Shown here piece by piece: positions 7,937-64,000 of a stretch of 64,000 bases of DNA (its first letter is position 1; every line of letters begins with the position of its first letter). The notes under the pieces were generated by a model. It ran no database searches. It was not told where the DNA came from and saw only the letters and a list, made by a program, of their open reading frames with translations. The translations under genes and the position numbers were made by a program. Source of the stretch: an uncultured Eubacteriales bacterium (GTDB lineage Bacteria; Acidobacteriota; Aminicenantia; Aminicenantales; Aminicenantaceae); assembly GCA_964406575.1 (NCBI GenBank), contig CAYOSH010000003.1:64447-128446 (forward strand), written 5' to 3'.

Positions 7937-9281
7937 ACGCTTCCGAACAAACATCACAGTCCGGATCATTCTGTTGAGCCTTTTCTTATGCCTGTTTTTC
8001 TATCTTTTGTTCAAGACTGAACTGTTTGCCGCTCTGTTTATCTCAGCTGTCTTGTGTATTTACCAGACCTACTCATTGGTTCGTTATGTAGAGACAACAA
8101 ACAGGGACCTTTCTCGATTCTTTGAAACCATCCGGTATGAAGATTTTTCTCAAACTTTTAAAGATGACGGGCGAGGCAAATCCTTCTCTGAATTGCGGGC
8201 TGCATTTAATGACGTGTGCAATGCTTTCCGGAAGGCACGATCCGAGAAGGAGGAGCACTATCACTATCTCCAGACTGTCGTTCAGCACATCGGAGTGGGC
8301 CTTATCGCCTTTCGAAGGGACGGTGAAGTCGAACTCATTAACACGGCGGCGAAGAGACTGCTCAATGTTCCTCGGCTGAAAAACGTTAAAAACTTGGAAA
8401 CCTTAAGCAAAAAACTGGTCGAAAAACTCCTTCAACTCCGCTCGAAGGAAAGAGCTCTTGTGAAAGTCTATGACAATGGTGAACTCCTCTATTTGGCTCT
8501 GTATGCCACTGAATTCAGGCTAGCAGGACAAGACATATCCCTGGTTTCTATCCAAAATATTCAGAGCGAATTGGAAAAAACGGAAATCGAAGCCTGGCAA
8601 AAGCTCATCCGAGTGCTCACGCACGAGATCATGAATTCCATCACTCCAATATCCTCACTCGCCTCAACCATGAATGAGTTGATCGGAGAGGCTTTCTCCG
8701 GTGTGACTTCAGATTCTGAATCCGATCAAGAAATCCTCGATGATATCCGCCAAGCGATCAAAACAATTCAAAAAAGAAGTCAGGGATTGCTTCATTTCGT
8801 CGATGCCTACAGGAACCTCACTCTTATTCCGCAGCCAAATTTTCAAATTTTTCCGCTACAAGAGCTTTTTGCAAGGGTAGAGAAGCTGATGCAAGCGAAC
8901 ATCGAAGAGAAAGGGATCGACTTCGAAGCCAAAGTGGAACCCGAAAGCCTGGAGTTGACAGCGGATCCCGAGCTCATCGAACAAGTGTTGATCAACCTAC
9001 TCCTGAACGCCCTCCAGGCTCTCGAGCAGCGACAAGAGGCTCAGATCCGGCTGGAAGCCCGTCTCGATGACAGGGGGAGAATCCTTATCCAAGTCAAAGA
9101 TAACGGGCCGGGAATATCCAGGGAGAATTTGGATAAGATATTCATCCCTTTTTTCTCGACAAAAGACGGAGGCTCTGGAATCGGATTGAGCTTATCCCGA
9201 CAGATTATGCGTCTGCATAAAGGAACGATAAGTGCTCTGTCTAATCCTGATATCCAAACGATCTTCACGCTCAGGTTCTGA
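7926..9281 (+). CDS. Sensor histidine kinase (2 TM, HisKA + HATPase_c)
   Basis: Start moved to the ATG at 7926, which overlaps the regulator's stop (ATGGTTTATAA). TM helices follow MVYKRFRTN. H-box LTHEIMNSITPI, then DNGPGI and GGSGIGLS boxes. Confidence 0.85.
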   Translation: MVYKRFRTNITVRIILLSLFLCLFFYLLFKTELFAALFISAVLCIYQTYSLVRYVETTNRDLSRFFETIRYEDFSQTFKDDGRGKSFSELRAAFNDVCNAFRKARSEKEEHYHYLQTVVQHIGVGLIAFRRDGEVELINTAAKRLLNVPRLKNVKNLETLSKKLVEKLLQLRSKERALVKVYDNGELLYLALYATEFRLAGQDISLVSIQNIQSELEKTEIEAWQKLIRVLTHEIMNSITPISSLASTMNELIGEAFSGVTSDSESDQEILDDIRQAIKTIQKRSQGLLHFVDAYRNLTLIPQPNFQIFPLQELFARVEKLMQANIEEKGIDFEAKVEPESLELTADPELIEQVLINLLLNALQALEQRQEAQIRLEARLDDRGRILIQVKDNGPGISRENLDKIFIPFFSTKDGGSGIGLSLSRQIMRLHKGTISALSNPDIQTIFTLRF

Positions 9282-9411
9282 TCTTCCGTTTCCCATACGG
9301 TCCATTCGGGGGATGAACTCTATATGCAATTCGTAATGGTCAGTTCAGGGAACTGACTCTACAGCCTAAATTATCCGACGTTCCTAGGACCACGGATATG
9401 GAAATGCGTCC
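9280..9411 (+). mobile_element. MITE-like repeat, family B short copy (B5, ~132 bp)
   Basis: The left part CCGTTTCCCATACGGTCCATTCGGGGGATGAACTC matches the B2 left end (CGTTTCCCAAACGGTCCGTTCGGGGAATGGACTC). The right terminus CCACGGATATGGAAATGCGTCC matches the family right end. It contains an 8-bp perfect hairpin at 9339-9357. Confidence 0.6.
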
Positions 9412-9427: not shown

Positions 9428-10828
9428 TCAATCGAGCTCATATTTTTGCAGATACTCAGGGACTGTGACCGCCCACTGGAACTTTGACTTGATATCCTCG
9501 GCAAGGCTAAAGGCCGCCTGTTTTTCCCCGTGCGTGATAAAAAGTTTCTTTGGAGGCGACTTGATAAAGCCGATCCACTTGAGCAGCTCATCTCTATCGG
9601 CATGTGCAGAAAATCCTTGGATCTGCCGGATCTGTGCCCGGACAGGATAGGTGTTTCCATGAATCCGAACTTCTGCCGTTCCCTCCAGGATCGACCGTCC
9701 CAAAGTCCCGCTGGCCTGATATCCTACAAAAAGTATAGTGGATTCCGGCCGGGATATGTTGTGCACGAGATGATGTTTTATTCGTCCTCCTGTACACATG
9801 CCTGATCCTGCCATGATCACACAGGACCCTCTGATAGAATTGATCGCCTTGGATTGCTCGACAGTATGGATCAGACGAAGTCCGGGAAAACTGAATGGAG
9901 ACTGCCCCCTATTAAAAAGCGCCCGTGCTTCCTTGTCGAGGTACTTTTTATACCGTTCGAAAACATGAGTGATATCCACGGCCATCGGACTGTCTAGAAA
10001 CATCATCAGGTAAGGAATCCGGTCCTTGCGCGCGAGTCGGCTCAGGCAATACATCACCTCTTGTGCCCTTTCAATGGCAAAAGTGGGGACAACGATGTTG
10101 CCTCCCGCTTTTATGGTATCGAGGATGGACATCTTCAAAAGATTCTCAGTACTGTCATAGTCCTCGTGATTGCGGTTTCCGTATGTGGACTCCATGATCA
10201 CATAATCAGCCTGGTCAAAAACGGAAGGGTCTCGAACAAGAGGCTTATCCCACTGTCCGATGTCTCCTGAGAAGACGAGCCGTCTGCGATTTTTATCTTC
10301 TTCAACTAACAATTCAACCATAGCAGCGCCAAGGATATGGCCCGCATCGTGCAGGCGTAACATCACTTTATCGTTGAGCGGATAGAGGCCATCATAGGGA
10401 ACGCTTTTTACCAGAGGAAAGGTTTTTTCCACATCTTTGACAGTGTACAGTGGGATCTCAGGATAAGGCCCTTTTCTCCCCTCTTTTTTGTGGCGCTTCT
10501 TTTTGTAGGCCGCGTCTTCTTCCTGAATCTCTGCCGCATCCCTTAGCACGATCTCGAGCATTTCCTGGGATGGAGAAGTGGTCAGGATCTGGCCAGAAAA
10601 TCCATCCCTCACAAGCTTGGGTACAAGACCGGAATGATCGAGATGAACATGAGTGAGGATGACAAAATCGATGTGCTCAGGGAGCACAGGAAAGGGATTC
10701 CAGTTCCGGATGCGATATTCCCTCTCCTGAAATAATCCACAATCCACGAGTACAAGGAGTCCTCCAGCCTCTAAAAGATAGCAGGACCCTGTTACCTGTT
10801 GGGTTGCACCCAGGAATTGTAACCGCAT
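9428..10828 (-). CDS. Beta-CASP MBL-fold RNA-metabolising hydrolase (RNase J/CPSF-like)
   Basis: Start moved to MRLQFLGATQQVTGSCYLLE. HVHLDHSG motif, with beta-CASP and C-terminal RNA-specificity-type sequence (FSAHADRDELL). Confidence 0.8.
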   Translation of the reverse strand: MRLQFLGATQQVTGSCYLLEAGGLLVLVDCGLFQEREYRIRNWNPFPVLPEHIDFVILTHVHLDHSGLVPKLVRDGFSGQILTTSPSQEMLEIVLRDAAEIQEEDAAYKKKRHKKEGRKGPYPEIPLYTVKDVEKTFPLVKSVPYDGLYPLNDKVMLRLHDAGHILGAAMVELLVEEDKNRRRLVFSGDIGQWDKPLVRDPSVFDQADYVIMESTYGNRNHEDYDSTENLLKMSILDTIKAGGNIVVPTFAIERAQEVMYCLSRLARKDRIPYLMMFLDSPMAVDITHVFERYKKYLDKEARALFNRGQSPFSFPGLRLIHTVEQSKAINSIRGSCVIMAGSGMCTGGRIKHHLVHNISRPESTILFVGYQASGTLGRSILEGTAEVRIHGNTYPVRAQIRQIQGFSAHADRDELLKWIGFIKSPPKKLFITHGEKQAAFSLAEDIKSKFQWAVTVPEYLQKYELD

Positions 10829-10830
10829 GA

Positions 10831-11349
10831 CTATTTCATCCCTGAGAAGAATGTTTGCGCGATGAGGCCTGCGATGGGAGGAAAGAAAAACGTGCAGACG
10901 AACCTGACGAATGTGAATTTCCATCCCATGATCCCAACCTCCATGGGGACACGCGCGATCGCCCACAGGGACCATGCCGTGACATAAGCGACCATAGTCC
11001 CGAATCCAGCCCCGGCTTTGAGAAGGCCTGCAGCCAGGGGCAAGCTCACATAAGGCCCTCCGGGAGTGATGCCGCCAGCAATCGTTCCGATGACAATGCC
11101 TCTTATACCTGAGGCATCCCCGATCAATCGATTGATCTGGGCCTGAGGCAGCATAACTTGAACCATCCCCGCCAGGATAAAGGCAAAAATCAGGAGGGGA
11201 AGGATCTCCGCGATCATCTTGAAAGAAAGTTTCATTCCTGTTATGTACTGTCCCTCCCCCCGGAAGTAGGCATAGACAAGAACTGCTAAGGCGAGAACGG
11301 CCATAATCAAAGTTGGTCCTAACATGCTCGAACTCCTCTTTGTGTCCAT
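10831..11349 (-). CDS. Half-size integral membrane permease (COG0701/DUF318-like)
   Basis: 172 aa and polytopic. The GGITPGGPYVSLPLAAGLLKAGAG motif is typical of this permease family. Confidence 0.6.
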   Translation of the reverse strand: MDTKRSSSMLGPTLIMAVLALAVLVYAYFRGEGQYITGMKLSFKMIAEILPLLIFAFILAGMVQVMLPQAQINRLIGDASGIRGIVIGTIAGGITPGGPYVSLPLAAGLLKAGAGFGTMVAYVTAWSLWAIARVPMEVGIMGWKFTFVRFVCTFFFPPIAGLIAQTFFSGMK

Positions 11350-11733
11350 TTTATTTTGCTGTATAAAGAGCTTCTTTCAAAGTGATCACTCGTTACCCTC
11401 TGAATCCCTGATCCCACCTCTCTTTTGTCCCTTCATTACGCCCATAAACACATTACCCGTATATATAAACTCTCTCCACTACTGTGCGATAGTGCAAGAA
11501 ATACCCTTTTTTATGTTTTTTCCTCGCACACGATGATCACCTTGCTAATAAACCCGGCTGGCCTGCTCTTCTGCAAAGCATTTGCCGGAGAAAATTATAA
11601 TTCACTCCTCACGTTCCACCCTGAGTCGAAGTCCCATGAGCACAAGCTCGTCCTGCCAGTAATCCGGCTAGATCGAATGAACAACAGATTTTATAATATG
11701 AGCACTCGACTAAGCAAATTTTTCCTTACATAT

Positions 11734-11969
11734 GTAAACATCCTCAGAACCGTGATGGCACATGCCCAATCACGTTATTTGGTGTTCCAATTTTTTGGTG
11801 GAGAAAACCGTGAGAAGGGCTGGACGGGCATGGTGTATCTCCCGAGTGGGAGATGTGAGGGAAGCCCGGATCCGAGCGAAGTTTCCTCGCTGCGGAAACT
11901 AAGTGTGTTTTCGAAATCTCCAATTGGAACTTTCGGAACGCCATTCATTACAGTTTTGGGGATGCTTCC
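11734..11969 (-). mobile_element. MITE-like repeat, family B copy (B3, 236 bp)
   Basis: Plus-strand termini are GTAAACATCCTCAGAACCGTGATGG ... GGGGATGCTTCC. Flanking 9-mers CTTACATAT and CTTGCATAG match 7/9. The internal core GTCCAGCCCTTCTCACGGTTTTCTCCAC (minus strand) is shared with B1. Confidence 0.75.
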
Positions 11970-12099
11970 CTTGCATAGGAAAAGATATCCTTTGCATACT
12001 CACGGGACACTGATGATCTGGGGTGTGTTTTCAGTTTTTGTAATGGAGAAATAACACAAGCTATCTTGAAAAAATGCGAGTCCTCCAGAATAGTCTAAC

Positions 12100-26850: not shown

Positions 26851-28869
26851 TTAAAACCGCTGAGTTTCCAAATCCACAGCTTCTTTTCCTCTAAATCGGT
26901 CCTCATCACGCGTTCCAAAACTGAACTGATTGGCGACAGGAACGCCATACTTTTTCGAGTAGATCTCGCACTTTTTAAAGATATCCTCCAGTTCCTCGCG
27001 CGACAGAAGCTCATTCTTGTAATCGAAGAGATACCCCCCCCTTTCGTGCTCGATTTTGGGTTTATTCAAGACGAGCAAAGGACGCAGGATCAATGCATCG
27101 GCTTCGATCTTCTGGCACAAACGGAAATAGTCCTCCAGGTCATCCCTGTTCACCCTCATGGGCATAAAAACCATATGTATCTTGGGGAGATTCCCCTTAT
27201 TTTTCCTTTCTTGGTTCAAGAGAACGAGGTTGGGGATAATCGATTCCCACCGGTCATTCCTTATCTTGGCATAGGTCTCCTTTGTCGCAGCGTCCAGGGA
27301 TATATACAGATATATGGGTTTTCCTGCCAGAGCTTTGATCGTTCTTTGTGTGAATGCCTGGCCGTTTGTGGATATTTCCATGATTTTTTTGTGTCTCGTG
27401 CAATGCTCCAAGATCTGCTCGAACCTCGGATGTAAAAGCGGTTCACCGATGGAGCAGTTGATGAGGAGGCGAGCTGACCGGAAAAAAGGCCCGTACTCCT
27501 CGAAGGTCTTCTCGTCGACGACGGTTTCGATATGCCCTTCTTCTTCCTCCTTCATCCAATCCCAGAGACAGTACACACACGGTGGCTTCATGTTGCATTT
27601 GGCAAGAAGATCTATTCCCAGGTTGAGCGGATAGGAGTTCAACGCTGTTTTTCCCTGTTTCCGTTCCTCATAATTCAACATGGCATTTTTGTGGAAAAAG
27701 CGGAATTCCTCATGGATCTCGTCCTCATCATGGAACTGGATCGGCGAGACCTTGATGCCCAATTCTCTCGGATCCTCGTTGTGGTATTTTTCTGGGAACA
27801 CTCTGTTCAACGACAAAACAAGCTCATGCCCGCTGTGTTCCTTCGGAATAGTCGGGATGGAAGGAAGAGGGAAACTGTAGAAATTCCAGCTTTTGATGAG
27901 AGGATAAGCCCCAAGCTCCTTGCCATCCAGCTCTATTTGGAGGGCCTGTTTGTAATTGGCGTATTCGGAGAAGGCGTAGACAGAGATGAATTTGTGTGAT
28001 TGCAACTGGCACGTGGGCAAAAACACGCGGGCCCTTTGTTTCATCCATGCGTAAGGGAAGAATTCATCATGCTCCCATTCATGCCACCCAAAGTCGTAGA
28101 GCGAACCCTCCTGGTCGGGCAGAACAACCTTAATATTTTTGAGGAAGATACCCAATTTTCTCGAATCGCCACTGAGATCTGGCGGGAAAACACGGTTCAG
28201 CCGCAGTTCTATTTCGAAAGATGTCGAGGAAAAATCGAGAAGGAAATAGTACTTCGTTTCCCCGGGCAGGATCTCTCTCGAGCTGACGGATTTGCCCTCT
28301 GATAAAATCGTCAAGACAGGATTCTCGGCGCCTTCATAAGGGTGCCCTGCCTCGATGAGTAAGTATTTCTCTGTATCTTTGGGGAGGTCGGAAAAAAGAC
28401 ATTTCGCCTTTTTCTTCATCCAGCGGGACGCAATACGGTTTGGGTCTTCACTAGGAGTTTCGGGCAAATACCACCCATCCAGGAAGACTCCGACTTCCGA
28501 AGGGGTGAGAACCTCGACATCTCTCACCATTATTCCCATGTCTCTGGGATCGCCTTCAACCTGGAACGTGCGGTCCAGTTTGATATCGACGTTGAGATCG
28601 CCTGATTCGCTAAAGGCAAATATATATGGGCTGAATGCTGCTTCGACCTCCCGGCTCCCGATCTTCCGGTTGTTCACAAAAACGTCCATGACCGGGATCT
28701 TTTTGCCCGGGAAAGAATGGCCCGCCGTGATGCGAAGGAATTGCTTGCCTGGGTTTGGATAGTCTTTAAGAGATACCGCCGCCTCCTTCGACATCCACCT
28801 GAACGGGCCCTTGTCATCCCGTTCTTCTACATACCAACCGTCAAGGTACTCTTTGTGTGGGGCTTTCAT
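26851..28869 (-). CDS. Radical-SAM-like protein with three N-terminal ~120-aa repeats and a Cx5Cx2C cluster motif
   Basis: Residues 11-121, 131-249 and 260-379 each carry GW(Y/H)..E...(F)RWM.K.A ... D.R.(M/L)G(I). Then come CNMKPPCVYC (nt 27568-27597), IGEPLLHP, ISTNGQ and ISLDAATKETYAKIR, which are typical radical-SAM core motifs. Confidence 0.7.
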   Translation of the reverse strand: MKAPHKEYLDGWYVEERDDKGPFRWMSKEAAVSLKDYPNPGKQFLRITAGHSFPGKKIPVMDVFVNNRKIGSREVEAAFSPYIFAFSESGDLNVDIKLDRTFQVEGDPRDMGIMVRDVEVLTPSEVGVFLDGWYLPETPSEDPNRIASRWMKKKAKCLFSDLPKDTEKYLLIEAGHPYEGAENPVLTILSEGKSVSSREILPGETKYYFLLDFSSTSFEIELRLNRVFPPDLSGDSRKLGIFLKNIKVVLPDQEGSLYDFGWHEWEHDEFFPYAWMKQRARVFLPTCQLQSHKFISVYAFSEYANYKQALQIELDGKELGAYPLIKSWNFYSFPLPSIPTIPKEHSGHELVLSLNRVFPEKYHNEDPRELGIKVSPIQFHDEDEIHEEFRFFHKNAMLNYEERKQGKTALNSYPLNLGIDLLAKCNMKPPCVYCLWDWMKEEEEGHIETVVDEKTFEEYGPFFRSARLLINCSIGEPLLHPRFEQILEHCTRHKKIMEISTNGQAFTQRTIKALAGKPIYLYISLDAATKETYAKIRNDRWESIIPNLVLLNQERKNKGNLPKIHMVFMPMRVNRDDLEDYFRLCQKIEADALILRPLLVLNKPKIEHERGGYLFDYKNELLSREELEDIFKKCEIYSKKYGVPVANQFSFGTRDEDRFRGKEAVDLETQRF

Positions 28870-28931
28870 CGTTTAACCGGAGGCTTATTGTAATTCGCAC
28901 CTATTCCTTTGTCAATTTTCAGAATTGGCAC

Positions 28932-29099
28932 GGAAGAATCCTTATTTCCGTGATAAAGGCATTAGACGCAAAAAGGAGCGAGTCACTGTCCTTATGAGTC
29001 GGATGGTGGTGGGTGGGGGGTCTTCGACGAATATGGACTGAGACGAACTCCTGCTATTATCATTTGACTTGATAGCATCACGGAAATAAGGATGCTTCC
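28932..29099 (+). mobile_element. MITE-like repeat, family A copy 2 (168 bp)
   Basis: GGAAGAATCCTTATTTCCGTGAT ... ATCACGGAAATAAGGATGCTTCC. A perfect 9-bp duplication AATTGGCAC lies at 28923-28931 and 29100-29108. Confidence 0.88.
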
Positions 29100-29108
29100 A
29101 ATTGGCAC

Positions 29109-29355
29109 GTAATCATTTCCAAATCCGTGAACGTCTGAACAATATTGCGTTATGGAGTGTCTCAATTGTGTCTAGAAAGAAACCGGGTGCCGGGCTGGAC
29201 AGCCCTAGCACTTCTTCCTGAAAAAGATAAGCGGAAAATCCGGAAGCGAATCTAAGAAGACTAGGAAATCTCCCTTTGGTGTAGAGTCCATCCTCCGAAT
29301 GGAGCGGCCAGATTTTGAGTCCATTCCCCGAACGGACCGTTTGGGAAACGATCCC
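29109..29355 (-). mobile_element. MITE-like repeat, family B copy (B2, ~247 bp)
   Basis: The plus strand starts GTAATCATTTCCAAATCCGTGAACG and ends CCGTTTGGGAAACGATCCC, an imperfect inverted repeat. Internal ACACAATTGAGACACTCCATAACGCAA (minus strand) is identical to B1. The last base overlaps the lpd stop codon. Confidence 0.75.
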
Positions 29356-30758
29356 TACGAATTGAGCATATGGATGGCCTCGCCTTTGGCATTCATGGCC
29401 GACTCCATGACAGCTTCGGATAATGTTGGATGAATATGTATGGACGAGGCAACATCTCTGAGAGTGAGTTTCAGTTTCACGGCGAGCGTCAATTCTGCAA
29501 TGAATTCACTCGCATTAGGAGCAAGGATCTGTGCGCCGATGATCCTGTCCTTGTCATCCGCCACAACCTTAACGGAGCCCTCCAGCTTTCCCATCGTCAT
29601 CGCTCTGCCGGAAGCTTGTAAGGAAAACACTCCAACCTGCGTTTTTATTCCTCGGTCTTCCGCCTCTTCCTCGGTGATTCCGACACAAGAAAATTCCGGA
29701 TCCGTAAAGACAGCCATGGGAAGGGCGTTGTTATTTATCACATTATTCGCCCCCAGGGCATTCTCAACAGCAAAAATGCCTTCGTGCGAGGCTTTGTGGG
29801 CAAGGAGTTTTCCACCGATGAGATCCCCTATGGCATAAATCCCAGGAATGTCTGTCTCAAGATAATCATTCACCTTTACGAAGCCAGCCTTATCCTGGGT
29901 GAACACGCCTCCTCCCCCCTCGCATATCTCCGCATTGGGCGCTCGGCCCGTGGCGAAAAGCACCATTTCCCCCTCAAAAGTGAAGGGCTTATTGGTCTTC
30001 AAACAGACTCCTCTCAAGGTGACTTGCCCGGTGCGGACATCGCTCTTCTCTATCTTCATGTCTGTATAGATATCCATGCCTTGTTTTTTGAGGATTCGTT
30101 GCAGCCGCCTGGCCATTTGTGAATCTATACCCGGAAGAATGGTGGAAAGGATCTCCAGGACAACAATTTCTGTCCCCAACCTTTGAAAAATGGTGCCGAT
30201 CTCAAGACCAATAGCCCCTGCACCGATAATTAACATTTTTTTCGGGACCTTACCCAACCCGAGGGCCAGTTTGCTATCGATCACCTCCGTGCCGTTTCCT
30301 TGTAAAAATGGAAGCTCCTTCGGCCGACTTCCGGTGGCCAGGATGATCTTTTCCGCTTCGATAACACTCTCCCCTTCTTCTGTGTCGATGCGTATCTGTC
30401 TTTCATTCCGCAAAGAGGCTACTCCCCGGATGACGTGAACGCCGTTCTGTTTCAGTAAAAACTCTATTCCTTTCACCAACCTCTGGACAACAGCATCCTT
30501 TTCCTTTTGCATGTGCTGCCAGTTGCATGAGAGTTCGGTTCTGGGACCGTCAATGTTTGTGTTTTCTCTGACATCTTTAAATAGCTTGGTCTGTTGGAGA
30601 AGATACTTAGTGGGTATACATCCCCAATTCATGCACGTCCCGCCAATCTTCTCTTTCTCGATCAGGACGAGCTTCTTTTTGCACTGTGCGCCTCTGAGTG
30701 CCGCCACATATCCGCCCGGCCCACCCCCAACCACTGCAATGTCATACTTGTCTACCAT
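29355..30758 (-). CDS. lpdA: Dihydrolipoyl dehydrogenase
   Basis: GGGPGGY FAD motif, redox disulfide GGTCMNWGCIPTK, and a C-terminal HIHPTLSE interface motif. Confidence 0.9.
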   Translation of the reverse strand: MVDKYDIAVVGGGPGGYVAALRGAQCKKKLVLIEKEKIGGTCMNWGCIPTKYLLQQTKLFKDVRENTNIDGPRTELSCNWQHMQKEKDAVVQRLVKGIEFLLKQNGVHVIRGVASLRNERQIRIDTEEGESVIEAEKIILATGSRPKELPFLQGNGTEVIDSKLALGLGKVPKKMLIIGAGAIGLEIGTIFQRLGTEIVVLEILSTILPGIDSQMARRLQRILKKQGMDIYTDMKIEKSDVRTGQVTLRGVCLKTNKPFTFEGEMVLFATGRAPNAEICEGGGGVFTQDKAGFVKVNDYLETDIPGIYAIGDLIGGKLLAHKASHEGIFAVENALGANNVINNNALPMAVFTDPEFSCVGITEEEAEDRGIKTQVGVFSLQASGRAMTMGKLEGSVKVVADDKDRIIGAQILAPNASEFIAELTLAVKLKLTLRDVASSIHIHPTLSEAVMESAMNAKGEAIHMLNS

Positions 30759-43807: not shown

Positions 43808-43975
43808 GTAAGCAACTTTAATTCCATGATAAAGGCATTAGACGTAAACAAGAGCGAGTCACTGTCCTTATGAGTCGGATGCTGGTGGGTGGGGGGGTCT
43901 TCGACGAATATGGACTGTGACGAGCTCCTCTATTATCATTTGACTTGAGAGCATCACGAAAAAAAGGATGCTTCC
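43808..43975 (+). mobile_element. MITE-like repeat, family A copy 3 (168 bp)
   Basis: GTAAGCAACTTTAATTCCATGAT ... ATCACGAAAAAAAGGATGCTTCC. Flanking 9-mers CACGGAAAC (43799-43807) and CAGGGAAAC (43976-43984) match 8/9. Confidence 0.85.
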
Positions 43976-51439: not shown

Positions 51440-51642
51440 GGGACCGTTGGCGGCGGGCTCAATACAAAGACCGTTTTCCGAACAATTGGTTCGAGGACGG
51501 ATCACTAAATCGGATCTGTTCATTCGGAGAAGGGAGATGATCTATTGCCGTCCAGCCCTTCTCGCAGTTTTCTCCACTACACAATTGAGACACTCCATAA
51601 CGCAACTTGTGTTCATACGATCATGGATTTAGGGATGCTTGC
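51440..51642 (+). mobile_element. MITE-like repeat, family B copy (B1, ~203 bp; left boundary approximate)
   Basis: Starts 5 nt after the recN stop with GGGACCGTTGG (compare B2 GGGATCGTTTCC). Shares the cores GTCCAGCCCTTCTCGCAGTTTTCTCCAC and ACACAATTGAGACACTCCATAACGCAA with other B copies. Ends GATCATGGATTTAGGGATGCTTGC. Confidence 0.7.
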
Positions 51643-51727
51643 AATGTTTTTTCACTTCTTGTGTTTCTAGCAATCTGCGAGTAATTATATTATATTAGTG
51701 GACCTGTTGCAGAGAAAACACACCTCA

Positions 51728-53059
51728 ATGAAAATACAACACCCACGATTGGGCAATAAAAAATTCACCATCCATACTTTTGGATGCCAGATGAACGAAA
51801 ACGATTCCGAGCGGATATCGGGGATGCTAAAGGCAGAAGGCGCTCATCTAGAGGAATCGGTCGAAAACAGTGATATCGTCATCATCAACACCTGCGCAGT
51901 TCGTCAAAAATCCGAAGAAAAACTCTACTCTTTTCTGGGACGCTTGGGAGACCTCAAAAGAAAAAGAGACATCGCAGTCGGAGTTGTGGGGTGTGTGGCA
52001 CAGCTCTATCGCGCTGGACTGCTCGATCAGAGTCCCGCTATAGATTTTGTTATGGGCCCAGACAACTATGGACACATCCCGGATATCCTCATAAACCAGA
52101 CAAATGAAAAGATCGTCTCCACTCAGTGGAGTAGAGCATGGCAAGAAATCCCATTTTCCAAGATCCACAGAAAAGGAAAAACAAGCGCTTATGTGACCAT
52201 CATGGAGGGATGCAACAATTTTTGTACCTATTGCGTTGTCCCTTTTACAAGAGGAGGTGAAAAACATCGTCCAGAACGGAACATCATTGACGAGATCAGG
52301 CAATTGGCGCAGGAGGGGTATCTTGAAATTCAACTCCTCGGTCAGAATGTGAACTCTTACAAAGACCCTGAAACAGGCACAAGTTTTGAGCACCTTCTCA
52401 AAGAAGTAAACTCCGTGGAAGCGATTCAATGGATCCGGTTTCTGACATCTCATCCCAAAGATCTGCCATTCAGTCTTGCCCAGACCATGCGGAAAATCCC
52501 AAAGATCTGCCGCCAGCTTCATCTCCCCTTACAATCTGGTTCCTCTGCCATCCTCAAAAAGATGAACAGAGGATACACAAAAGAAGAATATCTCGAACGA
52601 ATCCAGATGTTACGCTCTGAAATGCCAGATATGAGCTTCAGCACGGATATCATTGTCGGTTTTCCGGGAGAGACAGAGAATGACTTTGAGCAGACTCTCG
52701 AAGTCCTCAAAAAAGTCCATTTCACCAACATCTTTTCTTTCCGCTATTCTCCCCGTCCGCTCACGGCGGCCGCCAAGATCGAAGACTCTGTTCCTTTTGA
52801 AGTTAAAAAGCAAAGGCTTTTGGATGTCCAGGATGTTCAAAGGCAAATCCAACTGGAAAACAACTCCTCCTTAATCGGGAAAACGATCAAAGTACTCTGT
52901 CTAGGGAAAAGTAAAAAAGACACGCAAAGATATTCAGGACGGACAGAAGCCTATAAAGTGGTGAATTTCCACTCCAAACACGATGTCATCGGCCAATTTG
53001 TCGAAGTTCATGTTACCTCATGCGGGCCGTACTCGCTCCACGGTGAAATCCCATCATGA
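51728..53059 (+). CDS. miaB: tRNA-2-methylthio-N6-dimethylallyladenosine synthase
   Basis: Start moved to MKIQHPRLGNKKFTIHTFGCQMN. Radical-SAM motif CNNFCTYC and a C-terminal TRAM domain. Confidence 0.9.
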   Translation: MKIQHPRLGNKKFTIHTFGCQMNENDSERISGMLKAEGAHLEESVENSDIVIINTCAVRQKSEEKLYSFLGRLGDLKRKRDIAVGVVGCVAQLYRAGLLDQSPAIDFVMGPDNYGHIPDILINQTNEKIVSTQWSRAWQEIPFSKIHRKGKTSAYVTIMEGCNNFCTYCVVPFTRGGEKHRPERNIIDEIRQLAQEGYLEIQLLGQNVNSYKDPETGTSFEHLLKEVNSVEAIQWIRFLTSHPKDLPFSLAQTMRKIPKICRQLHLPLQSGSSAILKKMNRGYTKEEYLERIQMLRSEMPDMSFSTDIIVGFPGETENDFEQTLEVLKKVHFTNIFSFRYSPRPLTAAAKIEDSVPFEVKKQRLLDVQDVQRQIQLENNSSLIGKTIKVLCLGKSKKDTQRYSGRTEAYKVVNFHSKHDVIGQFVEVHVTSCGPYSLHGEIPS

Positions 53060-53166: not shown

Positions 53167-53246
53167 GGAAGAATTTTTAATTCCTTGATTGTATGAATAT
53201 AAATGCGTTATTGAGCGTCCCTCTTCACGGATTTGGAAATGCTTCC
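53167..53246. mobile_element. 80-bp mini-copy of the repeat superfamily
   Basis: GGAAGAATTTTTAATTCCTTGAT (compare A2 GGAAGAATCCTTATTTCCGTGAT) ... TTCACGGATTTGGAAATGCTTCC (identical over 18 nt to the B2 terminus). Flanking 9-mers match only 5/9. Confidence 0.6.
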
Positions 53247-55286: not shown

Positions 55287-55427
55287 AAACATCTCCACTC
55301 CCACGCTCTGATGAATATTCATTGACTCTATTGAATGATCAGATTGTGTGATGGAGAAAACCGAAGGGAAGTTCTGGTCGGGCTTGGATACTCGGATATT
55401 TCTCATCACGGATTTATCGATACTTCC
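55287..55427 (-). mobile_element. MITE-like repeat, family B short copy (B4, ~140 bp; hppA-side boundary approximate)
   Basis: Plus-strand GATGGAGAAAACCGAAGGGAAGTTCTGGTCGGGC matches the plus strand of B3 (GGTGGAGAAAACCGTGAGAAGGGCTGGACGGGC). It ends CATCACGGATTTATCGATACTTCC at 55427. Confidence 0.6.
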
Positions 55428-55436
55428 TCCATCCTA

Positions 55437-55604
55437 GGAAGCATCCTTATTTCCGTGATGCTCTCAAGTCAAATGATAATAGCAGGAGTTCGTTACAGTC
55501 CACATTCGTCAAATACCCCCCACCCACCATCATCCGACTCATAAGGACAGTGACTCGCTCTTTTTTGCCTCTAATGCCCTTATCACGGATATAAGGATGC
55601 TGAC
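55437..55604 (-). mobile_element. MITE-like repeat, family A copy 4 (168 bp, inverted relative to copies 1-3)
   Basis: GGAAGCATCCTTATTTCCGTGATG ... TATCACGGATATAAGGATGCTGAC. Flanking 9-mers TCCATCCTA and TTCCTCCTA match 7/9. Confidence 0.85.
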
Positions 55605-55620
55605 TTCCTCCTAGGATAAT

Positions 55621-55649
55621 TTGATATTCTTCAGGTTTTCAGTTATAAT
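55621..55649 (+). promoter_or_regulatory. Sigma-70-type promoter candidate for the nusA-infB operon
   Basis: TTGATA-17 nt-TATAAT (near-consensus), 17 nt downstream of MITE A4 and ~50 nt upstream of nusA. Confidence 0.55.
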
Positions 55650-55697: not shown

Positions 55698-56726
55698 ATG
55701 AAGGTAAACGTCTGGAACACGATCGTTCAACTGAGCAAAGAGAGAGGTGTGGAGACAGGGGTAATCGTCAACGCTATCGAAGAATCTCTCCGTGTCGCCT
55801 CATCGAAGTACTTCAACCATAATGAGAAAATCAATGTGATCTTCAAGCCGGAAAAAGGTGACCTGCGTGTCTATTCCATCAAACTCATTTCCAAGAGCCC
55901 AAAGGACCTATCTAAAGAGATTCCTGTCGAAGAAGCGAGGAAAATCGATGCCAGTGCAAACGTCGGCGATTATATTGAAATAGACCTCCCATCAGAAACT
56001 TTAGGCCGCATCGCCGCTCAAGCAGCCAAACAGGTTATCTTTCAAAAAGTCAGGGATGCCGAGCAAGAAAAAATCTACAAAACATTTGCACCTCATTTAG
56101 GGGAAATTGTTACAGGAGTGTTGCGAAGGTTTGAATCCAATAAAAACATGATCCTCGAGATCAACAAAACAGAGATCCTGTTTCCATACCGCGAAAATCT
56201 TCCCCAGGAAGACTTCAGGAGGGGCGATCGAGTCAAAGCAGTCATCATCCAAGTCATCAAAGATACGAAGGGCCCTCAAGTCATTGTTTCCAGGAGAGAT
56301 CCGAAGTTTTTGGCAAAGCTTTTGGAGCTGGAGACGCCCGAGATCGCCAATGGGAATATCGCCATCAAGGACATCGTCCGTCAACCCGGTGAAAGAGCCA
56401 AAGTCGCTGTCTCAACCAATGAGAAAGATATTGACCCTGTTGGGGCATGTATCGGAGTGAAAGGAAATAGGATTCTAGCCATAAGCAACGAATTATCTGG
56501 AGAAAAAATCGATGTCATCGAGTGGTCAGACAATCCTCTTATCTATGCAAAATCTGCACTGAGCCCCGCCAAAGTGGAAAAAGTCTTCATTATGAATAAA
56601 CAGATGCAGACTTTGCAGGCTATTGTCTCCAAGGACAATCTTTCCCTTGCCATCGGCAAAAAGGGCATCAATGTTCGTCTCGCTTCAAGACTCGTGGGCT
56701 GGAAGATTGAAATTAAAAATCAGTAA
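55698..56726 (+). CDS. nusA: Transcription termination/antitermination factor NusA (short form without AR repeats)
   Basis: N-terminal domain, then S1 (GEIVTGVLRRFE..) and two KH domains (ACIGVKGNRI, LAIGKKGINVRLASRL). Confidence 0.92.
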   Translation: MKVNVWNTIVQLSKERGVETGVIVNAIEESLRVASSKYFNHNEKINVIFKPEKGDLRVYSIKLISKSPKDLSKEIPVEEARKIDASANVGDYIEIDLPSETLGRIAAQAAKQVIFQKVRDAEQEKIYKTFAPHLGEIVTGVLRRFESNKNMILEINKTEILFPYRENLPQEDFRRGDRVKAVIIQVIKDTKGPQVIVSRRDPKFLAKLLELETPEIANGNIAIKDIVRQPGERAKVAVSTNEKDIDPVGACIGVKGNRILAISNELSGEKIDVIEWSDNPLIYAKSALSPAKVEKVFIMNKQMQTLQAIVSKDNLSLAIGKKGINVRLASRLVGWKIEIKNQ

Positions 56727-61480: not shown

Positions 61481-62953
61481 ATGCAGAGAAGAGAATCCTT
61501 CGCCTCCAAGTGGGGAATCATTTTTGCCGGCTTAGGTATGGCTGTTGGAACCGGGAACATTTGGCGATTTCCTCGAATTGTATCTCAACAGGGTGGCGGC
61601 GCTTTTATTATCGCATGGCTTCTATTCCTTTGTCTCTGGTCGATCCCTCTTCTTACGATAGAGATCTCCATAGGAAAAAAGACGCGTCTGGGAGTTATCG
61701 GTTCATTTAGAGAGATTATCGGCGAGAAGTTTGCATGGATGGGCACATTTGTCGCTTTTGTGACAACAGCCATCATGTTTTACTATTCCGTGGTCACAGG
61801 ATGGTGTATCAAGTACTTTCTGGCTGCCTCTTTGCAGGGATTGATCAAAAAAGAGTCCTCAGAATTCTGGCAATCCTTTACCAGCTCTTGGGAGCCGGTG
61901 ATCTTTCACTTCCTCGCTATCAGCGTGGGCGCTTTAATCATTTATCGTGGAGTCGTCAAAGGCATCGAGCGTGTCAATAAAATCCTCATCCCTTCACTGT
62001 TCATCCTTTTAATCATTGCAGGCATTCGGGCCATCACCTTACCCGGGGCCTTTCACGGCCTGGATTTTCTGTTTTCCCCTAACCTCGCCAGGCTTACGGA
62101 TTATAAAGTGTGGTTAAATGCACTGACTCAGTCGGCATGGTCGAATGGAGCAGGGTGGGGATTAATCCTCACTTATGCGGTCTACACACGCAAAAAAGAA
62201 AATCCTTTCCTGACAGCCACCACTTTGGGTTTCGGAAACTCACTGGCTTCACTGCTGGCTGCATGTGCAATCATCCCCACTGTATTTGCCTACTTTTCCA
62301 CACAGAATTTCTCTCAAGAAAAAGTGCTGGATGTTATGAGATCCGACAACCAAGGGCTGACATTCATCTGGATACCCAAACTCTTTTCTGGTGTTCCAGC
62401 GGGTTCCTTCTTTCTGGCGCTGTTTTTTTTGGCGCTCACTTTTGCCGCTTTTTCCTCTCTAATTTCCATGATAGAACTTGTGACTCGCCTATTCATGGAT
62501 ACGGGGATGACACGAAAAAAGGCGGCCCTGCTTGTGGCCGTTTTTGCGTTTCTCTTCGGTCTTCCGTCCGCCATTAGCATGGGATTTTTCAACAATCAGG
62601 ATTGGGTCTGGAGCATAGGTCTCATGTTGAGCGGTTTCTTTTTCGTCATAGCCGTCTTCAAATTCGGACCGCAGAGATTTCGCAGAGAGGTTGTCTCTTT
62701 ACCGGAAAAAGCTGTGAAAGTTGGCAGATGGTTCGACATTATTGTTTTTGTCTTCCTTCCCCTCCAATTTTTCGCTATGATATTCTGGTGGTTTTGGCAA
62801 AGTTATTCTGCAGATCCGGATAACTGGCTCAAGATCAATGCTGAGTTCTCGGTGGGCACTGTTTTGTTTCAGCTGACAGTCGCCATTGTGATCTTTATCC
62901 TTTTGAATCGAATCATCACAAAAAATATAGAACGATCGACCGATGAGTATTGA
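61481..62953 (+). CDS. Sodium-dependent (NSS/SNF family) transporter
   Basis: GMAVGTGNIWRFP motif and ~11-12 TM. Confidence 0.88.
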   Translation: MQRRESFASKWGIIFAGLGMAVGTGNIWRFPRIVSQQGGGAFIIAWLLFLCLWSIPLLTIEISIGKKTRLGVIGSFREIIGEKFAWMGTFVAFVTTAIMFYYSVVTGWCIKYFLAASLQGLIKKESSEFWQSFTSSWEPVIFHFLAISVGALIIYRGVVKGIERVNKILIPSLFILLIIAGIRAITLPGAFHGLDFLFSPNLARLTDYKVWLNALTQSAWSNGAGWGLILTYAVYTRKKENPFLTATTLGFGNSLASLLAACAIIPTVFAYFSTQNFSQEKVLDVMRSDNQGLTFIWIPKLFSGVPAGSFFLALFFLALTFAAFSSLISMIELVTRLFMDTGMTRKKAALLVAVFAFLFGLPSAISMGFFNNQDWVWSIGLMLSGFFFVIAVFKFGPQRFRREVVSLPEKAVKVGRWFDIIVFVFLPLQFFAMIFWWFWQSYSADPDNWLKINAEFSVGTVLFQLTVAIVIFILLNRIITKNIERSTDEY

Positions 62954-63038
62954 TGCCATAGTTTTTATGGTTTTTGCCTTCGCCATCTGTATCGGTGGTT
63001 TCTCATATTCTCTGTACTTTTCCTCCAAAAACAAATAG
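62943..63038 (+). CDS. MetS-like small membrane subunit of the NSS transporter (31 aa)
   Basis: Below the ORF-track cutoff. The ATG overlaps the transporter's 3' end. It encodes MSIDAIVFMVFAFAICIGGFSYSLYFSSKNK: a single TM and a basic tail, as in the small subunits I recall next to NSS genes. Confidence 0.6.
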   Translation: MSIDAIVFMVFAFAICIGGFSYSLYFSSKNK

Positions 63039-63236
63039 GTCATAATTCTTTGACTCTTCTATCCCGTTACCCAGAAGAGTCTGTCTCACCCCGCATCTCT
63101 TGTGTCTCTCTTTGCGTGGTATTGTTAAGAATTTTTACAATTTTGCTGAAATTTATACTTTTTTGGAGTACAGGAAGCTGCATTCGGGGGGTAAAGTCTT
63201 GAATTTTGGGGAGAGGTATTGTATTGTAGATAGGAA

Positions 63237-63515
63237 ATGAGATTAAACAAGAACCAGATCGAACACATGGCATTCAATATCGTCAGGAATCTGCTCAAAG
63301 AGGAAAAAATCATCGCAGAGAGCAAGAACGATCTCATTGCAGAAATATCCCATCTCCTCACAGATGAATTTCTGAAAGAGGATAAATTGGACCAAGAAGT
63401 GAGGGAGATCCTTAACCAGCACATGGAGAAAATCCGGAAAGAAAACATCGAATACCAGACCATGTTCCGAATGATTAAGACTAAGCTAGCCAAAGAAAGG
63501 AATTTAGTCCTGTGA
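63237..63515 (+). CDS. DUF507 family protein
   Basis: 92 aa. MRLNKNQIEHMAFNIVRNLLKEEKI... has the DUF507-type N-terminus. Paired with a paralog that overlaps it by 4 nt. Confidence 0.6.
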   Translation: MRLNKNQIEHMAFNIVRNLLKEEKIIAESKNDLIAEISHLLTDEFLKEDKLDQEVREILNQHMEKIRKENIEYQTMFRMIKTKLAKERNLVL

Positions 63516-63799
63516 GTATTCGTCTTTCAAGAGAAAAGGTAAATTTCCTGGCGCGCCAGATCCTCAATCAGCTGTTCGAAAATGACGATATTGAATTCCT
63601 CGACGAGCCGAACGAGATCAGGCTTACTGTCGTGAAGAGCATCGAAGAAGAGATGAAACTCTATGATCTGATAGATAAACGTGCTGTAGAAAAGATCGAA
63701 TCTCAGAAAAAGGCTATCAAAGAAGGAAGCCGAGAGTGGGAAATTCTGTATCGCAAATATTATAACGATGAAATCACAAAACTCGGAAAGTTTTTTTAG
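63512..63799 (+). CDS. DUF507 family protein (paralog)
   Basis: 95 aa. MSIRLSREKVNFLARQILNQLFENDDIEF. Confidence 0.6.
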   Translation: MSIRLSREKVNFLARQILNQLFENDDIEFLDEPNEIRLTVVKSIEEEMKLYDLIDKRAVEKIESQKKAIKEGSREWEILYRKYYNDEITKLGKFF

Positions 63800-64000
63800 C
63801 TAGATACACATCCCTTCTTCTTCAAATACACTTCGAGCGCTGTTTTCCAATGTGAAAAATGGGTGATGCCAATTTTTTCGGCATTCCTGTTTTGGAGGAC
63901 GGAATAGCCTGGACGGGGCGCCTTGGCACCAAACGTCCGGGAATCCACAGCTTCTGGACGCACATCAGAATCCAGTAACTCAAAAACCGCCTCCGCAAAC
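63800..64000 (-). CDS. rfbD: dTDP-4-dehydrorhamnose reductase-like protein, C-terminal fragment (5' part beyond the window end)
   Basis: My minus-strand translation is ..FAEAVFELLDSDVRPEAVDSRTFGAKAPRPGYSVLQNRNAEKIGITHFSHWKTALEVYLKKKGCVS*. The RP.YSVL motif is typical of the RfbD C-terminus. Confidence 0.55.

Follow-up and report, generated by a model that had tools for sequence, protein, structure and literature searches.

The stretch of DNA analysed here, referred to as the window, comprises 64,000 nucleotides of contig CAYOSH010000003.1 (positions 64,447 to 128,446; assembly GCA_964406575.1) and was deposited under the name of an uncultured Eubacteriales bacterium, which GTDB assigns to the Aminicenantaceae. 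It harbors a dispersed repeat, family B, for which a preliminary description had listed five copies (B1 to B5), as well as a second repeat with ends of the same kind, family A. Family B very probably represents a family of miniature inverted-repeat transposable elements (MITEs), which targets promoters and is moved in trans by a UPF0236 transposase encoded on an insertion sequence (IS).

Copies of family B in the window

B1 to B5 are all located in intergenic regions, in mixed orientation relative to their neighbours, and the neighbours are unrelated housekeeping genes. B1 lies between a RecN-like and a MiaB-like gene, B2 between a dihydrolipoamide-dehydrogenase-like gene (29355..30758) and a radical-SAM gene (26851..28869), B3 between the genes for a beta-CASP nuclease and a permease (10831..11349), B4 between an H+-pyrophosphatase gene, whose stop codon it adjoins, and nusA (55698..56726), and B5 between convergent genes.

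The similarity among the five copies was assessed by single-sequence nhmmer searches with each copy against the window. B1, B2, B3 and B4 are mutually alike over their 3' 100-150 nt or so, with E-values from 1.2e-13 to 8.7e-5, which is well above chance. All sequence strings quoted in the preliminary description were found where it had placed them, and reading confirmed that B1 and B2 share the 27-mer ACACAATTGAGACACTCCATAACGCAA without a mismatch and that the block GTCCAGCCCTTCTC(G/A)C(A/G)GTTTTCTCCAC is present in B1 and B3 and, in a diverged form, in B2 and B4. A profile built on the consensus of the element (see below) likewise matched B1 to B4 significantly. It gave no match to B5, from which both shared blocks are absent, so that four of the five proposed copies stand and the fifth does not.

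The sole complete B element of the window is B3 (11734..11969, minus strand, 236 nt; profile match 11735-11969, profile positions 2-236, E 5.7e-73). Its termini, GTAAACATCC...GGATGCTTCC, are as previously reported, and its 24-nt terminal inverted repeats (TIRs) read, on the minus strand, GGAAGCATCCCCAAAACTGTAATG at the 5' end and CATCACGGTTCTGAGGATGTTTAC at the 3' end. The element is flanked by the 9-mers CTTACATAT (11725..11733, the copy on the promoter side) and CTTGCATAG (11970..11978; both given for the plus strand), which match at 7 of 9 positions, as had been noted, and constitute its target-site duplication.

B1 and B2 are old 3' parts of the element that are joined to arrays of an unrelated repeat. 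Homology to the element is confined to 51530..51642 in B1 (plus strand; profile match 51530-51641, profile positions 125-236, E 5.5e-24; 3' TIR ...ATCATGGATTTAGGGATGCTTGC) and, in a diverged form, to 29109..29249 in B2 (minus strand; profile match 29110-29249, profile positions 96-236, E 5.8e-17; 3' TIR ...TCACGGATTTGGAAATGATTAC). Both copies have lost the 5' TIR and the adjacent arm. The 5' limits originally assigned to them, 51440 for B1 and 29355 for B2, turned out to be the ends of the upstream genes, the homology beginning only at about 51530 and 29249, respectively. Similarly, the string CGTTTGGGAAACGATCCC at the 5' side of B2, which had been taken for an imperfect complement of its other end, is not a terminal repeat; it forms the hairpin of another small repeat, GTAGGGATCGTTTCCCAAACGGTCC. 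The conservation of both ends that had been proposed for all length variants therefore does not hold for B1 and B2, which carry GTAG hairpin arrays instead.

This separate repeat consists of GTAG followed by a hairpin of about 21 nt and often occurs as inverted doublets (GTAGGGACCGTTTCCCAAACGGTCCGTTCGGGGAACGGACCCTAC). Three units form the 5' module originally included in B2 (29281..29358; units at 29334-29358, 29314-29338 and 29281-29305); the GTAG of the first unit shares bases with the TAG that terminates the dihydrolipoamide-dehydrogenase-like gene. The left part originally included in B1 (51440..51529, plus strand) is degenerate GTAG-hairpin-like material without a match to the element profile, and it weakly resembles the 5' module of B2 (E 1.6e-4 in the nhmmer comparison of B1 with B2). 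In the Aminicenantes loci described below, 49 matches to the GTAG hairpin repeat were found, and some copies of B in other genomes, which we call 'type 2' (loci L006, L009, L015, L031, L056, L068 and L069), carry a GTAG doublet in place of the left half of the B centre. REP/REPIN sequences consist of GTAG and a palindrome and are mobilised by RAYT transposases. The 5' modules of B2, B5 and B1 share with them the GTAG start, the hairpin of about 21 nt and the inverted doublets, and judged by these features the GTAG hairpin units appear REP/REPIN-like; the likeness is limited to these foreign modules and does not extend to the B element.

B4 (55287..55427, minus strand, 141 nt; profile match 55287-55387, profile positions 137-235, E 6.5e-9) is an internal-deletion derivative, which retains the 5' TIR and arm (GGAAGTATCGATAAATCCGTGATGAGAAATATCCGAGTATCC) as well as profile positions 137-235 and from which about 92 nt of the centre are gone. 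B5 (9280..9411, plus strand), finally, is made up of a pair of GTAG-hairpin units, at 9299-9323 and at 9338-9362, and of a single TIR-like 3' end, CCACGGATATGGAAATGCGTCC, which ends at 9411. What it has in common with B2 is only the GTAG hairpin array (5' part of B2, E 6.9e-6) and this TIR-like 3' end, and B5 thus looks like a mosaic of the B2 type without the core.

Element anatomy and the conserved centre

The shared core supplied an exact search pattern (GTCCAGCCCNNCNCNCNGTTTNNTNNNNNANANAATTG), with which a single genome of each bacterial and archaeal species was scanned. The pattern occurred at 78 loci, all of them within six Candidatus Aminicenantes bins and many of them at contig ends; in these loci the consensus profile matched 113 distinct places, 49 of them over the full length. 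Two of the six bins (CAZXJE01 and CAZIMJ01; loci L002, L003, L007, L008 and others) are titled 'uncultured Eubacteriales' and contain dozens of B copies. Locus L043, which stems from an 'uncultured Eubacteriales' bin, is 77-81% identical to positions 62345-63984 of the window, which places the window in a related Aminicenantes genome; the label of CAZXJE01 and CAZIMJ01 is probably wrong.

The multi-copy alignment that had been suggested, in which B3 was aligned with 45 copies from the Aminicenantes bins, yielded one non-coding consensus of about 237 nt with 24-nt TIRs, GGAAGCATCTCCAAAACCGTGATG ... CATCACGGTTTTGGAGATGCTTAC. Complementary subterminal arms enclose a highly conserved centre of about 130 nt, which holds the hairpin CATCTCCC-nnnn-GGGAGATG. 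The element is short, contains no open reading frame (ORF) other than one of 18 codons, is bounded by TIRs and by a 9-bp duplication, occurs in dispersed copies and shares its TIRs with an autonomous IS (see below), as is typical for MITEs. The earlier view of a mobile, non-coding element with termini of the same kind as those of family A is thus supported. A scan for intrinsic terminators revealed no convincing terminator in the B centre.

The distribution of conservation along the element raises the question of whether B is mobile and also functional, in that selection keeps the centre as a structured RNA or as a platform for protein binding. This explanation would add to the MITE reading, and we consider it unlikely. 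In its favour, the mean pairwise identity in the 46-copy alignment amounts to 0.91-0.96 for the centre (alignment columns 60-197, about 11780-11910 in B3, taken outside the stretch used for finding the loci), compared with 0.72-0.77 for the TIRs, 0.73-0.81 for the arms and 0.38 for the apical 4-nt loop. The hairpin stem is kept with a free loop and two CG-to-UA double changes, and in the arms double changes that keep complementarity occupy 22 cells versus 7.0 +/- 2.1 after shuffling, a value of 22 being reached in 0 of 500 shuffles. The predicted fold of B3 has an energy of -81.5 kcal/mol (z = -4.65), and all internal-deletion and mosaic copies retain the GTCCAGCCC...GTTTTCTCCAC block.

However, Rfam contains no match in the window at gathering thresholds and none of relevance at the permissive threshold of E <= 1 on two loci with canonical copies. 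Almost no variation among the copies is seen in the putative central helices, and G-U and A-C mismatches occur in similar numbers, without a clear preference for one strand. Moreover, B copies are found in both orientations relative to the promoter (see below), and the same TIR is used by many unrelated interiors. Loops are common within subfamilies, and the pattern may partly reflect a constraint on transposition-competent lineages and not on each copy. Two roles are conceivable for the B centre: the element may require it in order to propagate, or the host may have co-opted it as a cis-acting module.

A micro-ORF in the centre (GGGAGAT, ATG, 18 codons, MPVQPFSRFSPPHNWNTQ) was also considered and rejected as a likely gene, since its changes are mostly non-synonymous, an earlier stop is present in about half of the copies, the ATG is lost in B1, B2 and B4, the 3' part contains 1-nt indels and the Shine-Dalgarno-like sequence is absent from the 'type 2' copies.

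Partner insertion sequence and insertion upstream of promoters

A total of 1.3 Mb of loci was searched for inverted TIR pairs with matching 9-mers. The sole long candidate, L104:91-1475, is an IS of 1385 bp with the left inverted repeat (IRL) GGAAGCATCCCCAAAACCGTGATGG, the right inverted repeat (IRR) ...CCATCACGGAAATAAGGATGCTTAC, a perfect duplication, CAGGTATGA, and a single ORF of 423 aa. The encoded transposase matches the Pfam family UPF0236 (PF06782; E 3.7e-24, 85.7 bits) above the cut-off of 24.3, and its two best family-model matches in NCBIfam are ISKra4 (E 2.5e-50, 171.8 bits) and ISLre2 (E 1.8e-45, 155.9 bits). Homologues of the transposase form 216 clusters at E <= 1e-10 in a large protein collection, and many of them are located on contigs of about 1.4 kb, as is expected when a repeated IS is assembled. 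Four further IS copies with B-type termini, L192:2917-4308, L193:2919-4297, L194:643-2021 and L195:94-1472, measure 1379-1392 bp; the IS copies encode one UPF0236 transposase of 422-426 aa, and one of these four has a perfect duplication.

The common part of B and the IS comprises only 24-27 nt at each end, which are 96% identical. From this restriction to the termini we conclude that the B interior is not derived from the IS and that B is a MITE and not a deletion derivative of the IS. The IRL of L104 is of the family-B type and its IRR of the family-A type; judged from these termini, one enzyme lineage may serve both MITE families, A and B. In metagenome contigs (L079-L191), at least eight unrelated interiors carry an identical TIR, ATCACGGAAATAAGGATGCTT(A/C)C, and this terminal repeat thus acts as a shared key for many MITE families. 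Two other origins were dropped: a descent from IS66, to which the GTAAGC terminus had pointed, because the duplication measures 9 bp and not 8 and the partner transposase belongs to UPF0236, and a transposase between the distant TIR pairs of L041, L050 and L016, where only ordinary genes are located.

Evidence for the duplication of the target comes from 43 flank pairs, which were taken from full-length profile matches and anchored at the TIRs, a few copies being counted on both strands. The 9-nt flanks show an identity of 0.50 versus 0.26 for mismatched pairs, the values are raised at all nine positions, and other registers reach 0.23-0.30. Several B copies are flanked by perfect or 8/9 target duplications. 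Family A is represented in the window by four copies, at 1357-1525, 28932-29099 (A2), 43808-43975 and 55437-55604 (A4), and by an 83-bp mini-copy at 53167-53246; perfect 9-bp duplications are present at A1 (TTGTCTAAC) and A2 (AATTGGCAC). The density of elements in the window is indeed high, as had been pointed out.

Exactly 9 nt separate B2 from A2, and the same is true of B4 and A4. The 9 bp between B2 and A2 (29100..29108, AATTGGCAC) are one half of the perfect duplication made by A2, with the second copy at 28923-28931. A2 (28932..29099) is inserted in this 9-bp target beside a promoter, and B2 has been displaced upstream. Correspondingly, the 9 bp between B4 and A4 (55428..55436, TCCATCCTA) match 55605-55613 at 7 of 9 positions as the target duplication of A4 (55437..55604), which is stacked between B4 and the promoter. 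The same target beside the promoter was thus re-used by a younger A copy, and the older B copy was pushed upstream. The IS copy L195 shows the same stacking. In the metagenome contigs L174, L187 and L191, the TIR of another element begins exactly 9 nt after an element end, and in L124 (metagenome contig Ga0315534_1025066) the junction A2 - AATTGGCAC - B2 of the window recurs, L124 being the same lineage as the window or a very close one.

The position of the elements relative to promoters, which were inferred from motifs and not mapped, follows a fixed distance. We define offset 16 as the sum of the 9-bp duplication and 7 nt, counted from the element end to the first T of the -35 box. In the right flanks of the genome loci, TTG is found at offset 16 in 19 of 74 cases against a background of about 1.6 per position, 14 of them with TAnnnT at a spacing of 16-18 nt; for the left flanks the numbers are 12 of 62, about 1.6 and 9. 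An independent set of unique ends from metagenomes, obtained by a scan with the family-A type TIR and belonging to many different interiors, gave 43 of 106 against a background of about 2.5, and 30 of these ends have a -10 box. The spike is confined to the single nucleotide of offset 16, without a tail at larger distances.

In the window, at least seven promoter-like sites are located 16 nt from an element end, namely beside A1, A2, A3, A4, the 83-bp mini-copy, B1 and B3, and in all four A copies the promoter lies at the same element end. The site beside A4 (55621..55649, plus strand) consists of TTGATA at offset 16, a 17-nt spacer and TATAAT (11/12 of the consensus), lies upstream of nusA and was also found by an independent consensus scan. 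Beside A2 (28887..28915, minus strand), TTGACA at offset 16 is followed by a 17-nt spacer and TACAAT, and the start codon of the radical-SAM gene is located 63 nt from the element end. Beside B1 (51659..51687, plus strand), TTGTGT at offset 16, a 17-nt spacer and TAATTA precede the MiaB-like radical-SAM gene (51698..53059). The weak site beside B3 (11690..11717, minus strand) has TTGCTT 16 nt beyond the 3' TIR, a 16-nt spacer and TATAAA, and the permease gene starts about 385 nt away. An outward promoter within the conserved block, which had been considered earlier, was not seen; the promoters sit in the host flanks, at the fixed 16 nt from the element end.

The two types of element ends differ in this respect. 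Among the metagenome ends, those reading ...GCTTAC carry the signal in 38 of 62 cases compared with 5 of 44 for ...GCTTCC (Fisher p = 1.3e-7), and ...GCTTAC ends face a co-directional gene start in 43 of 55 cases, at a median of about 90 nt. In the IS, the ...TAC end is the IRR, which lies on the downstream side of the transposase gene, and a hexamer is present at offset 16 from the IRR in all five IS copies (TTGAAA, TTGACT in two copies, TTGATT and, in L104, only the weaker TTTTAA); L192 is located upstream of ssb and L193 upstream of rpsP. In full B copies, the TIRs of which are nearly symmetric, the signal was found on the right side only in 13, on the left side only in 8 and on both sides in 6, and the ends grouped by their terminal dinucleotide show the same trend in a weaker form (AC 10 of 25 versus CC 9 of 46). 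Recognition of a symmetric target, CAA-N7-N9-N7-TTG, by the transposase alone would probably not suffice as an explanation, since most TTG sites at offset 16 have a correctly spaced -10 box.

Could the fixed distance result from survival after random insertion instead of a choice of target by the transposase? Insertions within genes or promoters would be purged by selection, and elements are indeed located upstream of housekeeping genes such as nusA, the H+-pyrophosphatase gene and the MiaB-like gene. A survival filter would, however, give a lower bound and a tail, whereas the spike covers a single nucleotide. The filter is also at odds with two independent insertions in the very same 9 bp and with the autonomous IS copies at the same offset, and the same specificity has been documented for related transposases, including de novo transposition of TnGBS (PMC3942029). 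We therefore regard this explanation as very unlikely.

The preliminary description had interpreted B1 to B5 as internal-deletion derivatives of one longer parent. This holds only for B4, which equals B3 minus about 92 central nt, and loosely for B5, which resembles B2 minus the core. The search for a parent element led to the 1379-1392-bp IS, but given that B and the autonomous IS are alike only over 24-27 nt per end, this IS is not the parent of the B interior. In addition, B1 and B2 lack the 5' TIR and contain foreign GTAG hairpin repeats, the 'type 2' copies elsewhere show a centre that has been replaced and not deleted, and no longer element with the B interior collinear with a transposase gene was found in the 1.3 Mb of loci, which makes a single parent for the whole series highly improbable. 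The idea that the shared blocks are not mobile but belong to the conserved leaders or the regulatory regions of certain genes, for which the intergenic position of the copies, often just upstream of genes, might speak, can practically be dismissed. The neighbour genes are unrelated, both orientations occur, 9-bp duplications are present, numerous copies sit at contig ends in the six bins, and the termini are identical to those of an IS that carries a transposase gene.

Several observations weigh against family B as a promoter-targeting MITE family moved by the UPF0236 transposase. The L104 transposase scores below both NCBIfam cut-offs (205 for ISKra4, 200 for ISLre2), and its assignment within the ISKra4/ISLre2 group is tentative. 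A tblastn search of the window and of 470 kb of Aminicenantes loci found no transposase gene. The IS copies stem from metagenome contigs of unknown taxonomy, and only the identity of the termini points to mobilisation of B by this enzyme in its host. Comparison of orthologous locus pairs revealed no clean empty site; L006/L024 and L035/L060 differ by larger indels that include genes, not by clean excision or insertion. The sites beside B1 and B3 are weak (3/6 in the -35 box) and fail a stricter consensus scan. Finally, the far stronger conservation of the centre compared with the TIRs is not accounted for by a plain MITE model.

Some further features of the window were noted. The region of about 385 nt that separates the permease start from B3 (11350-11733) is without a convincing ORF and contains a second promoter-like site (11380-11353); it may represent an overlooked small feature or else a long leader. 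When the longest ORFs are taken, the genes for the beta-CASP nuclease (9428..10975) and the upstream permease (10831..11349), both on the minus strand, overlap by 145 nt, and the nuclease probably uses a later start codon. No tRNA or tmRNA genes were found in the window.

Relation to known systems and meaning

Classical bacterial MITEs include Correia/NEMIS of Neisseria, ERIC, RUP, Nezha and MIC231. Like these, B is short and non-coding, has TIRs that match an IS, target duplications and a fold-back structure, occurs in many intergenic copies and contains an interior unrelated to the IS. Unlike these, the B centre is better conserved than the TIRs, and classical bacterial MITEs are not known to measure a fixed distance from a -35 box.

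The insertion rule has its closest counterpart in the TnGBS integrative and conjugative elements, the ISLre2 family (p-MULT 3) and several ISs of the ISKra4 group (p-MULT 4), which insert 15-17 bp upstream of the -35 box of sigmaA promoters, most often with 16 bp between the box and the IRR (Guerillot et al. 2014, PMC3942029). These elements generate direct repeats of 8-9 bp and have inverted repeats (IRs) of 18-39 bp with a terminal C; their orientation is set by the dissymmetry of the IRs, and near-perfect IRs lead to insertion in both orientations (PMC3942029). Further traits of this group are a transposase signature motif, situated between the domains N1 and N2, that is linked to promoter targeting (PMC3942029), and transposition through a circular intermediate. 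Family B and its partner IS resemble them in the UPF0236-type DDE transposase of the IS, the 9-bp repeats, the IRs of 24-25 nt ending in C (...TAC or ...TCC), the position 16 bp upstream of the -35 box with the IRR beside the promoter, and the insertion of elements with near-symmetric IRs in both orientations. In contrast to the p-MULT elements, the copies in the window are non-autonomous and gene-less, the partner transposase remains below both family cut-offs, and Aminicenantes are not among the phyla listed in that study, which mentions neither MITE derivatives nor stacked insertions at one promoter, both of which are present here. As possible mechanism, an interaction with the RNA polymerase initiation complex was proposed by its authors, by analogy with Ty3 (PMC3942029). 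The eukaryotic cases cited there, Ty3 at Pol III start sites and Pack-MULEs at the 5' ends of genes, also share with B that integration is placed relative to the initiation machinery and that coding sequence is avoided; enzymes and hosts differ, and the analogy is one of mechanism only.

Based on these comparisons, we propose that B would be moved in trans by the DDE transposase (422-426 aa, prokaryotic Mutator-like, ISKra4/ISLre2 group) of an IS of about 1.38 kb with the same termini. Insertion duplicates 9 bp of the target and is very probably aimed just upstream of sigma70-type promoters, as published for this transposase group, possibly via the transcription initiation complex as suggested in the literature, so that the element end comes to lie 16 nt from the first T of the -35 box. 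Successive insertions re-use one 9-bp target, and older copies, such as B2 behind A2 and B4 behind A4, are displaced upstream and decay.

Promoter targeting itself is already documented for this group of transposases, and B is a new family. Relative to the literature searched, which held no relevant report of MITEs in Aminicenantes or of TnGBS-linked MITEs, what is new is the existence of non-autonomous families, their host phylum and the stacking of insertions. An unexplained repeat of an uncultured phylum thereby becomes a defined system, consisting of a MITE, a partner IS, a transposase family and an insertion rule, and promoter targeting, a rare trait of bacterial transposases of the Mutator-like type, is seen to include Aminicenantes as well as hitch-hiking elements devoid of genes. 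Such gene-less elements can accumulate upstream of a sizeable share of promoters, and the B repeats explain contig breaks in Aminicenantes bins. In genomes without transcription data, the element ends could mark promoters to the nucleotide.

The conserved centre is a concrete candidate for a regulatory module borne by a MITE. As a more far-reaching idea, which we consider rather improbable, it would be a cis-acting module, either an RNA with a defined structure or a site at which a regulator, possibly one derived from a transposase, would dock, and that is planted at a fixed site upstream of sigma70 promoters. If this were true, housekeeping operons of Aminicenantes that are otherwise unrelated would be linked by a MITE family to form a single regulatory set.

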